Of a DNA stretch of 64,000 nt, positions 20,563 to 24,551 are shown piece after piece. Positions within the stretch are counted from its first letter, which is position 1; every line of letters starts with the position of its first letter. This DNA is from Escherichia coli (GTDB lineage Bacteria > Pseudomonadota > Gammaproteobacteria > Enterobacterales > Enterobacteriaceae). A program made the translations under genes and the position numbers. Location: NCBI RefSeq assembly GCF_024298765.1, contig NZ_CP101210.1, one strand, 5' to 3'. Under the pieces are notes generated by a model that saw only the letters and a program-made list of their open reading frames with translations, was not told the origin of the DNA and ran no database searches.

Positions 20563-21144
20563 TTACCCTATAGGTGCTACTGGCCATTCAATATCCGGTG
20601 CAGTTGTTGTATTAACACGGTTCAGCAACACCCGATACTTCTTCCAGGCTTCCAGCAACGAGATTTCTTCCTCCGTTGCGATTTCCAGATCTACAGCATC
20701 CTGAAGTGGCGCAATATGCTCACTGGCTACCTGCATCAGGCTGTTTTTTGTTTCTTCTGCCTCCCGGATCCGGAACAGTTTTTCTGCTTCCGTATCCTTC
20801 ACCCAGGCTGTGCCGTTCCACTTCTGAAACTCCCCTTCCGGCGATAACCAGGTAACATTTTCCGCTAACGGACCGAGTTCAGAAATAAATAACGCGTCGC
20901 CGGAAGCCACGTCATAGACCGTTTTACCCCGATGGTCTTCAACGAGATGCCACGATGCCTCATCACTGTTGAAAACAGCCACAAAGCCAGCCGGAATATC
21001 TGGCGGTGCAATATCGGTACTGTTTGCTGGCAGACCTGTATGAGGCGGAATATATGCGTCACCTTCACCAATAAATTCATTAGTTCCGGCCAGCAGATTA
21101 TAAATTGTTATGGTCCGTGGTTGTTCACTCATTCTGAATGCCAT
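20563..21144 (-). CDS. tfa: tail fiber assembly protein
   Basis: 193-aa ORF matching lambda Tfa ([12 protein letters not shown]...IEWP). Confidence 0.92.
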
Positions 21145-24100
21145 TATGCAAGCCTCACAATATAGTTAAATGCGATGTTTTTGACGGTGTTTTCCGCGTT
21201 ACCAGCAGCGTTAACGGTGATGGTGTGTCCATGTGAGCCAATCGCAACCGAGTGCGTATGAGCACCAATACCGACAGTATGTGCGTGTGCACCTGCGCTT
21301 GCAGCAGTGCCGGACAGTGAGTGGGTATGAGCACCATCTGATGATGTCTTCCCTGCATTACGAGTCTGGCCACTACCGCTTGTTGTGCTCATAATCCCCG
21401 CGCTTGGATTTGAAATCGCGGTATAACCATTAGGGAAAATGCTCGTGTTCGTGCCACCAAATGCACCGGAACTCTTGTGTTGGTGCGCACCGGCACTATT
21501 TGCGGTCCCGCTAATACTATGGGTATGCGCCCCGGTGTTATTCGTGGATTTGGTTCCGTAATCAAACGACGATGTGGTTTTCGTCCCCAAATCCGTACTG
21601 GATGCGCTGGCGCTGTGGGTATGCGATTTAATGCCGTCCTGTTCCTGAGACAATACGGCCCGACCACTGGCAGGTTTGCCCTTAATCGTCCAGCCACGCA
21701 TATCAGGGATCACGCCTGACGGATAAGCCGCTGCAAGTTTCGGGTAGGCAGATTTGTCAAAAGCCTGCCCCTGCATCAGGGCATAGCCAGACGGAACGGT
21801 ATCTGATGGCCACGGGATTGGTGCGCCGACTGGGTAGCTTTCTGGTGGAAGATTTTTCGAGGTATAAACTTCTGCCCAGTCTTCCTCAAAACCATAGCCA
21901 TCTCTTGAGGAACGGTAGAACAGACCTCCATTTCTGTAATGCGCCTTCATCTGCAGGGTCCGGCAACTTCCGACTCCGGTATAGAAGTTAACCAGAATAT
22001 AGCTGTCGCCAGAGCGGGTGACATTGTAAGCGCCTGATTCGGCATTCCAGGGAACGCCACCATCCGCATCGGCATATGTATCCGTTGCCCTTCTGGCAAA
22101 AGCAGCCACATGCGCGGCGGTTAAAGTAATATCTTTGGAACCATCAAACTCAACACCAGAAACCAGTCTTGGCGTTTGCAGCTTTGTTGCTGTTAATGCA
22201 TTACCGTTCAGACTTGCGGACAGTTTGGTTCCAATAATCAGTTCGCCGGTTGCGTTATCAATAGCAAACGGTCTTAATGTATTCCAGCCACCATAAACAT
22301 CACCTTGATTGGTAAGCAGCAGGTAAGTTTTAGCGCCATCATTACGCCATAATGCACCATACTCCCCACCTATCATTCGAATCTGATTACCACCACGCGC
22401 TACAATTTCGTCTGTGGCAAAAAGTTTTTTGCACGACAAGTTATCGTTAACGATTAACGAATGAGACTCATAAAAACCACGCCCACTCTTAAAATCAAGG
22501 ATAACGTCCGCCGCGATACATTCAGTCGCCGGATTTGTTGCCCCAAACTTATAGGTCGTATCATTAACAACGAGATCAGCACCAGGTGCGGATATTGACA
22601 GGCCATCTTCGATAAACGCAAAAACAGGGAAAGCAGCGCCATCAACATAGAACACAGAGCGCAAATCATCGCCCTTATTACTCATCATTATTGAGTGGAT
22701 GGCTCGTTCATTGTTTTGATATTGCCAGAACATTCCATAAGCATAACGCCCCCTGTCAGTCCAGCCACCAGGCATAACAAATCCGTTAAACTCGCAGTTA
22801 TTCATCGGATCGCCTGCGGTTCGCGTTGCCGTGGTGATAATGACCCTTGATGCCAGTTCGCTTACTGAGCCAGCAGAACGCATAACAACAACAGGGTAAT
22901 ATTTTCCAGATGTTGCACCTGCAGGAGCGTTAACCCGCACATAACGCATACCACGCTTATCAGCAAAGTCTGTTTTACTGACCGCGTTAATGTTGTTCAG
23001 GAAGCGTCCCTTATCGGGTATATCAGCGCCGTTCTGGTCTTTCTGCAGACGTTTCTCTGCATTGTCATAGGCTGATTTTACTGCCTTTGGCGTTGCCGCC
23101 AGCGTTTCAGACGTACTGTTGGTCGCACTGCTGAGCTGTACTACCCCCTTTTTCGTCGTGCTCGCATCCTCAAGCGCCACGGCGGATGCAATATCCTCTG
23201 CCCGTTTTGCCGCTGTCTCGGCGCGCGTTGCCGCGGATTCCGCCGTACTTTTGCTCTGTGCTGCCGCTGCCGCACTGCCAGCTGCCTCTGTCGCCTTCGT
23301 GGATGCTGTCGTGGCGCTGCCCTTCGCTGCTGACGCCTGTCTGGTCGCCTCATCTTTTGAAGCAGACGCCGATGATGCCGATGACGCCGCCGAACTGGCT
23401 GACGATGCGGCAGCCGTTTTTGAGGATTCTGCGCTGGTTTCCGACGCTTTCGCGTTCGTTTCGGATGTCTTCGCTGCGGAAGCAGACCTCGCTGCTGCGC
23501 TGGCCTGTTCAGTGGCTTCGCCAGCCTTCGTTGTGGCTGTTGAAGCAGACGATGCGGCACTTTCTGCCGACTTTCCGGCAGCGGTGGCACTGGCTGAGGC
23601 CTGCCCGGCACTTGTTGACGCGGCGCTGGCAGACGACGCAGCCGCTGTTTTTGAGCCTGCCGCAGCTGAGGCACTCTGTCCCGCTGCCGTTTCAGAAGAC
23701 TTAGCGTTCGTCTCGGACGTTTTGGCCGCCTTCGCAGAATTTGCTGTCGCCGTTGCCGAGGAAGCTGCGCTGCTGGCGCTCGAGGCTGCGCTCGTTTCTG
23801 ATGATTTTGCCGCCTCTTTTGAAGCTGACGCATCCCGGGCTGAGGTGGCAGCTTCTGACGCTTTCGTGGTCGCGGTGGATGCAGAAGTGGCTGCTGATTG
23901 TTGTGACGCTGCCGCATTCGTTTCTGACGTTTTCGCCGCAGCGGCACTGGTGGCCGCCGCGCTTTTTGAGGACTCTGCAGCGGCAGCACTTTTTTCCGCT
24001 TCAGTGGCCTTTGTTGATGCCGTTCCTGCGCTGGAAGACGCTGACTGAGCCGACGACGCGGCCTGTCCGGCTGACGTGCTGGCTGCGCGTGCTGAGCCTG

Positions 24101-24551
24101 CAGCATCAGTCGCATGGGTTGCCGCCTCACGGGCTGATGTGCCGGCATCGCTGGCTGACTTCTTCGCGGCTGCCGTGTTCTGTGCCACCGCGGACGCGTT
24201 ACGCGCCACCTCTTCCACCATCAGTTCAAAACGGCGCAGAGCCTCAGGACGGGCATCATCCTCTGTCATGGCACCGAGAAAATCATTCAGCGTACCGGGT
24301 TGAGAATCTTCATACACGGTGATGGTCCCGGCATGTGACGGCGGGAATCCCTCCACCAACAGAATAACGCTGTACTGACCGTACTCAACGTCCATACTGT
24401 AACGCCCGGCTTCATCCGGATTTTCAGATGCCAGCGTGTTCACCACCACCGTGGTGCTGTTACGTTTTGCTTTCAGCTGGATTGTGCAGTTCTGTACCGG
24501 TTTTCCTGTGCCGTCTTTCAGTACACCTGAAATCTTTACTGCCATATTCAC
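21144..24551 (-). CDS. stf: side tail fiber protein
   Basis: 1135-aa ORF; conserved N-terminus ([17 protein letters not shown]), long Ala/Ser/Thr-rich repeat region, His-box (GAHTHS) C-terminal tip. Confidence 0.9.

Follow-up and report, generated by a model that had tools for sequence, protein, structure and literature searches.

A Rac StfR-type side tail fibre gene with a predicted heptad coiled-coil rod and a gp37-type tip in an Escherichia coli prophage

The window analysed here, a 64,000-nucleotide stretch of Escherichia coli DNA (contig NZ_CP101210.1), carries a gene, stf, that very probably encodes a Rac StfR-type side tail fibre subunit, consisting of a docking domain, a heptad rod, a shaft, and a gp37-type tip, and assembled with the help of Tfa. 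Homology with Ur-lambda Stf and T4 gp37 suggests that a fibre comprises three chains, with residues 1-96 expected to dock it on the tail. The rod would become longer or shorter as heptads are duplicated or deleted in register, and receptor specificity would change by exchange of a head cassette, the presumed site of receptor contact, or of whole distal modules.

The open reading frame is present on the minus strand at 21144..24551 and comprises 1135 aa counted from a GTG. The earlier note had read it as a side tail fibre gene, and the strings quoted there all occur in its translation, among them repeat strings of 11 and 13 residues at positions 277 and 331 in GTG numbering. An in-frame ATG at 24545 is more likely to be the start than the upstream GTG at 24551, since RefSeq annotation of strain E7 places the start at the ATG, this codon corresponds to residue 1 of the lambda Stf N-domain in 9e7m, and a Shine-Dalgarno-like GGGGTG lies just upstream. 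From the ATG, the coding sequence (21144..24545, minus strand; stop codon TAA at 21144-21146) specifies 1133 aa with the N-terminus MAVKISG; residues are numbered from this ATG unless stated otherwise. The N-terminal attachment domain (residues 1-96; 24258..24545, minus strand) is the equivalent of lambda StfN, which builds a collar on the tail (PMC12617516); it matches Pfam PF08400 (phage_tail_N) with E = 1e-71, exceeding the curated cut-off, and the lambda tail fiber protein in PDB 9e7m/9mgh with E = 6.5e-52. At the DNA level, the gene is 97% identical to K-12 stfR over 95% of its length. To judge from these matches, it is an intact allele of E. coli K-12 Rac StfR, ordinary rather than new.

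The surrounding genes follow a lambda-like order on the minus strand, i.e., J (25279-28776), lom (24610-25209), stf, and tfa (20563..21144), which together with the Pfam and stfR matches upholds the assignment as a side tail fibre. A putative terminator, recognised by consensus match only, lies between lom and stf (24562..24583, minus strand) and comprises a hairpin with an 8-bp stem, 7 GC, followed by a T run. The tfa gene encodes a tail fibre assembly chaperone of 193 aa (Pfam Caudo_TAP, E = 2.9e-42) that shares 29% identity with T4 gp38. The start of tfa and the stop of stf overlap in the sequence TAATG; Tfa would be translationally coupled to stf and probably act as a folding chaperone for the tip. 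IS1 adjoins tfa; beyond it, Pfam scans and the E7 annotation place an AraC-family regulator, transposase remnants, and then ybhB and bioA. Between tfa and the end of the prophage, neither the Pfam scans of open reading frames nor the E7 annotation showed an invertase of a Cin/Gin/Pin-type switch. Elsewhere in the prophage, capsid gene E is interrupted by an 11-kb helper-embedded satellite.

These surroundings bear on whether the gene still belongs to a working phage. It could be a non-functional relic of a cryptic prophage, its reading frame intact by chance or through recombination with other prophages: Rac is defective in K-12, the prophage has a split capsid gene E and an IS1 beside tfa, and the isolated phage mEp332 has a frameshifted copy. 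Against this, all 1133 codons are open, the overlapping chaperone gene is also intact, and the open reading frames in the window for terminase, portal, protease, and tail proteins H and J are apparently intact. Excision of helper-embedded satellites upon induction has been reported and should make the interrupted late gene whole again, and the StfR protein is nearly unchanged in many genomes. We therefore regard a relic as improbable and favour an intact StfR-type fibre subunit.

The most conspicuous part of the protein is a long tract of Ala, Ser, and Thr. Its existence had been noted earlier and stands, although the tract runs for about 357 residues rather than roughly 300, and its repetition is more than low complexity: residues 104-460 (23166..24236, minus strand) form 51 uninterrupted xxAxxSA heptads in a single strict register. 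Ala occupies position 3 in 46 of the 51 heptads and position 7 in 35, and Ser occupies position 6 in 37. The Fourier power of Ala in the tract reaches 40.5 at a period of 3.50, compared with a maximum of 12.8 in 500 shuffles. Residues 109-478 (111-480 in GTG numbering) are 72% A+S+T, and there are no large hydrophobic residues. A single-chain AF2 model places helix at 98-386 and 398-469 with moderate confidence (pLDDT 73.8) and with breaks. Taken with cryo-ET and AF3 work that identifies residues 102-393 of Ur-lambda Stf as a proximal coiled coil (PMC12617516), this leads us to predict that residues 104-460 are a coiled-coil rod. The chains would wind in parallel, as alpha-helices, into a coiled coil 51 heptads long, with small Ala and Ser side chains at the core-type positions; as coiled coils go, a core of Ala and Ser is unusually weak. 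With a rise of 0.148 nm per residue, the result would be a thin rod of about 53 nm.

The same composition could instead mark an intrinsically disordered, flexible spacer, its length varying by neutral slippage. Such a spacer would accord with the 72% A+S+T and lack of large hydrophobic residues, with the moderate pLDDT and breaks of the single-chain model, and with relatives that carry off-register indels, including P0020, in which a 26-aa out-of-frame patch lies inside the tract. It accords poorly with one heptad phase held through 51 repeats and Ala in one column of 46 of them, with the whole-heptad length steps seen across diverged members (below), with the AF2 helix at essentially every rod residue, and with the lambda homologue, which is a straight proximal rod in cryo-ET and was modelled as a coiled coil (PMC12617516). 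Disorder is thus a very poor bet as an explanation of the tract, and we retain the coiled-coil rod.

Periodicity of the repeats is confined to the protein. Within the tract, Tandem Repeats Finder returned no array other than a 25-nt run with a 9-nt period, exact direct DNA repeats reach at most 12 nt, and the degenerate DNA repeats are 62-79% identical. A DNA tandem array, of the kind found at contingency-type loci, was rejected on these grounds. With no exact repeat longer than 12 nt, the tract is a poor substrate for homologous recombination within this allele. Long open reading frames do occur on both strands, as the earlier note had said: 309 aa (23119..24048), 172 aa (23186-23704), and 193 aa (23741-24322) on the plus strand, and 335 aa in the other frame of the minus strand (23141-24148). 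Equally long open runs arose when the codon order of the tract was shuffled (fraction reaching the observed length, 0.03-0.29), which identifies these alternative-frame reading frames, including the longest antisense one, as by-products of composition; as overlapping genes they were rejected. The tract also breaks short-read assemblies, besides yielding spurious reading frames.

Comparison of repeat number among relatives, as proposed earlier, showed that rod length is not invariant and varies through tandem duplications and deletions; the refuting condition set in the earlier note thus fails to refute it. A search for proteins with the N-domain alone gave only contig-end fragments of 108-204 aa, and rod lengths across the wider family were taken from a search of a representative library, with the conserved motif at the rod end (described below) as the anchor. 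In close relatives, the rod spans 298-452 aa. One insertion of 40 aa is identical at 40/40 positions to the next 40 residues, one of 105 aa is a tandem duplication identical at 92/103 positions, and two of 7 aa are exact tandem duplications. Among representatives at 50% identity, the N-domain anchor and the junction lay 194, 201, 215, 306, 313, or 418 residues apart, a spacing that differed from 418 by whole heptads in 19 of 20 proteins; rod length in the StfR-type family is thus quantised almost only in heptads. Among close relatives, 17 of 119 had rods off the heptad register, which indicates either that strict register is not obligatory or that some of the sequences contain errors. It is conceivable, but in our judgement rather unlikely, that the rod is a length-quantised spacer whose heptad steps reflect selection and not just in-register unequal crossing-over. 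Such selection might hold the distal shaft in rotational phase with the tail collar, or might tune the reach of the fibre to the depth of the host O-antigen or capsule layer.

The rod ends in a conserved 13-residue junction motif (residues 465-477; 23115..23153, minus strand) that matches PDB 5yvq/8ju3 and opens a Mu gpS-like segment (about 440-521). In other genomes, partial matches break on either side of the junction, at query nt 1832 and 1921 (about stf codons 496-526), and the motif thus appears from these sequence breakpoints to mark a boundary of module exchange. From the junction, the chain would pass into beta-rich shaft modules common to Mu/P1 S and T4 gp34. These include a T4 gp34-type trimerisation domain at residues 663-762 (22260..22559, minus strand; Pfam PF21446, E = 3.4e-27; PDB 4uxe/5nxf, E about 1e-11) and a Mu S/S'-like shaft segment at residues 813-907 (21825..22109, minus strand) that corresponds to residues 322-415 of PDB 8ju3.

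The fibre terminates in a gp37-type distal tip (residues 902-1133; 21147..21842, minus strand), made up of a collar, a needle bearing seven HxH motifs, and, farthest out, a head. Its 232 residues, the last of the protein, match the crystal structure of the T4 gp37 tip, 2XGF, with a phmmer E of 9.9e-83 (1e-82 when rounded), and the collar is also recognised by Pfam Collar (E = 1.5e-11). The collar and needle halves are 77% and 76% identical to T4 gp37, compared with 18% for the head. The His boxes reported earlier are all present, i.e., GAHTHS at 1007/1073/1096, GAHAHT at 1087, and GSHGHT at 1105 in GTG numbering. Boxes 1-3 (H975/H977, H1007/H1009, H1021/H1023; 21477..21623, minus strand) lie in the outgoing half of the needle and boxes 4-7 (H1073/1075, H1087/1089, H1096/1098, H1105/1107; 21225..21329, minus strand) in the returning half. 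All seven align with those of T4, so that the likeness to its metal-binding tip is borne out at the level of sequence, and the histidines are kept in 82-100% of 91 tips. The passage of PMC11705849 that cites Bartual 2010 describes the seven irons of the T4 tip as coordinated by HxH pairs. By analogy, each chain would run out along the needle and back, with the turn loop forming a receptor-touching head, and the seven HxH motifs would create seven octahedral metal sites (Fe2+ in T4), each with six histidines, two per chain. Structure prediction was of little help with this region: the gp37 fold is an interlaced trimer, beyond single-chain modelling, the AF2 single-chain model has a pLDDT of 57.8, and its sole Foldseek match, 2XGF (TM 0.30), is sequence-driven and adds nothing beyond homology. 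We give almost no credence to the idea, discussed for marine phages with HxH fibres (PMC11705849), that the boxes serve in receptor recognition as an iron-loaded "Trojan horse" for siderophore receptors instead of as an internal metal spine, because they are the conserved part of the tip, with the variation in the head between them, and the heads of T4 and Ur-lambda bind OmpC and LPS (PMC5221442, PMC12617516).

Between His boxes 3 and 4 lies a hypervariable head cassette (residues 1024-1072; 21330..21476, minus strand) equivalent to the head domain of T4 gp37. Across the 91 tips, residues 1015-1070 are hypervariable, with a column identity of 0.28-0.41 and an entropy of 2-2.7 bits in the head region, and the 45 unique heads group into 30 clusters. 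In T4 gp37, it is the head domain that contacts OmpC and LPS. Host-range mutations of T4, at residues 938-955, fall in the head region (PMC5221442). With only 18% identity between the two heads, the receptor recognised here may differ from that of T4. The earlier note had viewed the repeats as a likely substrate for recombinational variation in both length and host range. Length does vary by duplication and deletion, although the DNA of this allele is too scrambled for good homologous recombination; host-range variation is not to be sought in the repeats, since variation sits in the head cassette and in whole-module exchange downstream of the rod.

Much of this has precedent. Accounts of this gene family, of its relatedness to T4 gp37, of iron sites formed by HxH motifs, of Tfa as a chaperone, and of mosaic exchange among tail-fibre modules go back to 1989-2010, and the coiled-coil rod of lambda Stf followed in 2025. 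The feature is therefore already known and carries little weight as a discovery. Its practical value is modest: a domain map of an StfR allele, with the rod end and the His boxes flanking the head as junctions for fibre engineering.

Among the closest known counterparts is StfR of the K-12 Rac prophage (1120 aa; cluster P0039, 15,543 member sequences), which has the same architecture and gene neighbourhood. Measured against the K-12-type protein (P0039), identity is 100% in the N-domain, 96.3% in the rod, which has the same length (347 aa between anchors), and 98.9% in the shaft, but only 81.7% in the tip, which is 13 aa longer here, the difference residing in the head cassette. The Stf of lambdoid phage mEp332 (PV340541.1) is closer still at the tip (99.1% identical), and its gene is collinear and followed by the same tfa and AraC-type regulator. 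In mEp332, however, stf lacks 1 nt at position 551, which falls in a run of six A in the window, and the loss splits the gene into two open reading frames, much as in lambda PaPa.

Like Ur-lambda Stf, the protein has an N-domain (94 residues nearly identical), a linker, a predicted proximal Ala/Ser coiled coil, and a gp37-like receptor-binding domain at its distal end, and its gene follows J and lom and precedes tfa. Ur-lambda Stf forms trimers, with four fibres on the virion (PMC12617516). At 774 aa, lambda Stf is the smaller protein; both its rod (residues 102-393) and its shaft are shorter, and the tips are 69% identical; a second protein of that length, P0383 (774 aa), was considered as lambda Stf but rejected, as its C-terminus differs.

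The resemblance to gp37 at the distal tip of the T4 long tail fibre (residues 811-1026 in 2XGF) extends to the collar, the seven aligned HxH motifs, and a C-terminal string of 15 residues, with 76-77% identity outside the head; the head itself, at 18%, also carries a 14-aa insertion. The 900 upstream residues are unrelated to T4 except for the gp34-like domain, and the chaperone is Tfa instead of gp38. Mu gpS and P1 S (PDB 5yvq, 8ju3) have the junction and shaft segments in common with the protein (E = 2.5e-28 and 2.2e-39), but are myovirus fibres with other N-termini and tips, whose C-termini are switched by an invertible segment.

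An open reading frame is present at 21144–24551 on the minus strand, and the side tail fibre gene (stf) proposed there in the earlier note is genuine on the basis of both the open reading frame call and its setting. The gene and its neighbours are arranged in lambda late-gene order: host-specificity protein J (25279–28776, minus strand, Pfam J domains), lom (24610–25209, minus strand, Ail_Lom, E = 4e-121), stf, and directly after it a 193-aa tfa-type chaperone gene (20563–21144, minus strand, Caudo_TAP), the start codon of which overlaps the stf stop codon (TAATG). The prophage adjoins ybhB and bioA, i.e., the lambda attachment region. 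The likelier start codon is the ATG at 24545, which gives a protein of 1133 aa with the N-terminus MAVKISG, since the RefSeq start in E. coli strain E7 is the same ATG, the solved structure of the lambda Stf N-domain has its Met as residue 1, and GGGGTG sits just upstream. Residues are numbered from this ATG; numbering from the GTG start is offset by +2.

Several features flank the fibre genes. Between lom and stf lies a strong terminator-like hairpin (24562–24583, minus strand; AGCCCGCC-GTTTCA-GGCGGGCT followed by TTTTTT) with its end ~10 nt upstream of the stf start; such a hairpin would insulate the fibre genes from lysogen lom expression, barring late antitermination read-through. Just past tfa are an AT-rich stretch (19800–20560, 29–35% GC) and IS1 (insA/insB 19061–19758, minus strand). 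These are followed by a gene for an AraC-family regulator (18096–18848, minus strand), transposase remnants, and then ybhB and bioA. The regulator is probably phage cargo, as the isolated lambdoid phage mEp332 has the same one downstream of tfa.

The protein is composed of recognizable modules. Residues 1–134 match PF08400, with residues 1–94 near-identical to the lambda StfN structure 9e7m, and are followed by matches to Mu gpS (5yvq; residues 440–521), the T4 gp34 trimerisation domain (663–762), Mu S/S' (8ju3; 813–907), and the T4 gp37 tip crystal structure 2XGF (902–1133, E = 9.9e-83). The K-12 gene stfR is 97% identical in DNA over 95% of the window stf. Compared with P0039, the K-12-type StfR protein that represents 15,543 clustered sequences, the encoded protein has a 100% identical N-domain, a rod of equal length at 96.3% identity and a shaft at 98.9%, whereas its tip is only 81.7% identical and 13 residues longer. 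The gene is therefore an allele of StfR in which the head of the tip differs. Of 5426 complete E. coli genomes, 5128 gave megablast matches to related DNA and 1230 contain near-full-length copies, with a median of three matching places per genome. Many NCBI entries for this tail fibre carry the name 'short-chain fatty acid transporter', apparently a misannotation that has spread. The protein database matches also include thousands of 'partial' N-terminal fragments (108–204 aa) on short contigs, which suggests that short-read assemblies break within or just ahead of the Ala/Ser/Thr tract.

Every repeat and His-box string quoted in the earlier note occurs in stf. The tract is more ordered than the description as low-complexity implies. 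Aligned in blocks of seven from residue 104 onward, it stays in one register over 51 heptads, with Ala in column 3 of 46, Ser in column 6 of 37, and Ala in column 7 of 35. Fourier power for Ala reaches 40.5 at a period of 3.50; the highest value among 500 shuffles was 12.8. In a single-chain AF2 model, residues 98–386 and 398–469 are predicted to be helical (mean pLDDT 73.8); at 0.148 nm per residue, a rod of ~357 residues would span ~53 nm. Long open reading frames are indeed present in other frames on both strands, and are a consequence of GCN/TCN/ACN-rich codon content, since codon-order shuffles of the tract yield open runs of comparable length. In two close relatives, P0020 and P0025, a 26-aa patch replaces heptads at rod position ~237; it resembles the outcome of two frameshifts that compensate each other, for which the alternative frame there, lacking stop codons, leaves room.

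Repeat number is not invariant among relatives, contrary to the refuting outcome named in the earlier note. The length between fixed anchors is mostly 347 aa in the best 120 protein relatives, with extremes of 298 and 452 aa, and separate indels occur at many rod positions (+105, +40, +7 twice in different places, +4, −2, −3, −13, −28, −49). The insertions examined are tandem duplications: the +40 insertion matches the following 40 residues at 40/40, the +105 insertion is identical to the following stretch at 92/103, and each +7 insertion exactly repeats the heptad after it. Heptad register is kept in 102 of 119 close relatives. In a 50%-identity representative library, the distance from the N-domain anchor to the conserved junction motif at the rod end (residues 465–477) is 194, 201, 215, 306, 313 or 418 residues among proteins with the same N-domain; such distances differ from 418 by whole heptads in 19 of 20 proteins, the exception being 210.

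The proposal that the repeats are a recombination substrate is thus partly upheld, in that length varies by tandem duplication. Unequal exchange among the several stf copies per genome, or short-homology slippage, is the more plausible route; experiments have demonstrated that lambda recombines with the Rac and Qin prophages in stf-tfa (PMC3945230). Efficient homologous recombination within a single copy is unlikely because the tract DNA is scrambled: no tandem array was found in it, its direct repeats are short and 62–79% identical, and the longest exact one is 12 nt. Most start-to-start spacings of the direct repeats, 21 of 32 across families D1–D8 and D10, are divisible by 21 nt.

All seven HxH motifs of the tip align with those of T4 gp37, in agreement with the suggestion of a gp37-like, putatively metal-binding tip. 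In T4, according to a passage of PMC11705849 citing Bartual 2010, seven iron ions are held by the paired histidines of these motifs. Identity to gp37 is 77% over the collar and outgoing needle half and 76% over the returning half, but 18% between the halves, where the window protein has 14 extra residues. Across 91 aligned distinct tips, the histidines are 82–100% conserved, whereas residues ~1015–1070 show column identities of 0.28–0.41 with entropy above 2 bits. Clustering the head segments at 50% identity gives 30 groups, and their lengths run from 8 to 53 residues. The module occurs in 627 phage records (lambdoid, T-even, P2-like, and others), and identity is 99.1% to mEp332, 69% to lambda, and 64.5% to T4. 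The single-chain AF2 model is poor (pLDDT 57.8), as expected for an interlaced trimer; 2XGF was its only Foldseek match.

The earlier observation is confirmed and its interpretation is largely right, except in placing host-range variation in the repeats. Such variation would instead reside in the head cassette (residues 1024–1072, between His boxes 3 and 4) and in whole-module swaps. In T4, host-range mutations at residues 938–955 map to the head, the part of the fibre in contact with OmpC and LPS (PMC5221442). In the representative library, the N-domain and rod are coupled to many different distal parts, the tip to many different proximal parts, and rod-length classes to tips bearing 0, 5, 6 or 7 HxH motifs. 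Window and E7 are 100% identical over 12000–24320 (bio, ybhB, IS1, tfa, most of stf) but show 733 differences over the ~1.9 kb from 24321 (stf codon ~75; Stf N-domain, lom, J); this indicates a recombination junction inside the N-domain. The same stf in mEp332 (PV340541.1, 1802–5202) carries a 1-nt deletion at nt 551, where the window (~23995) has a run of six A (GGAAAAAAGT); the deletion divides the gene into two ORFs, 226 and ~678 aa long. A comparable frameshift is found in the stf of laboratory lambda PaPa, though the mEp332 deletion could be a sequencing error.

Elsewhere in the prophage, an 11-kb element (~37870–48763) interrupts the major capsid gene E at codon ~83 (...GYVKPKH / EVNPQM...). 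What is left of E is an N-terminal piece that stops near 48754 and a C-terminal piece, the ORF at 37089–37865. A 10-nt direct repeat, AACCCAAGCA, flanks the element as att repeats (37870–37879 and 48754–48763). It encodes an integrase (47355–48641), D5_N primase (42820–44571), SSB (41827–42276), its own gpE-like capsid protein (40569–41783), and excisionase/regulator-like (39823–40206), Nu1/TerS-like (39026–39577) and DUF2971 (38014–38919) proteins; annotation of the matching H79 locus also includes regulators and a head decoration protein. The element is a helper-embedded satellite, matching the capE type of Tommasini, Mageeney and Williams (bioRxiv 10.1101/2022.07.18.500453).

As a whole, stf is a textbook mosaic tail fibre of a kind already known, and the T4/lambda receptor-binding family to which its tip belongs has already been defined (PMC9659904). 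Only the whole-heptad quantisation of rod length is mildly new, and it could be a mechanical by-product. Ur-lambda Stf was described in 2025 as StfN (1–91), a linker, a proximal coiled coil (102–393), a hinge, and a distal gp37 homologue that binds OmpC, with four trimeric fibres whose N-domains make a 12-mer collar (PMC12617516). The Ala/Ser/Thr tract of the window is the same element as this proximal coiled coil.
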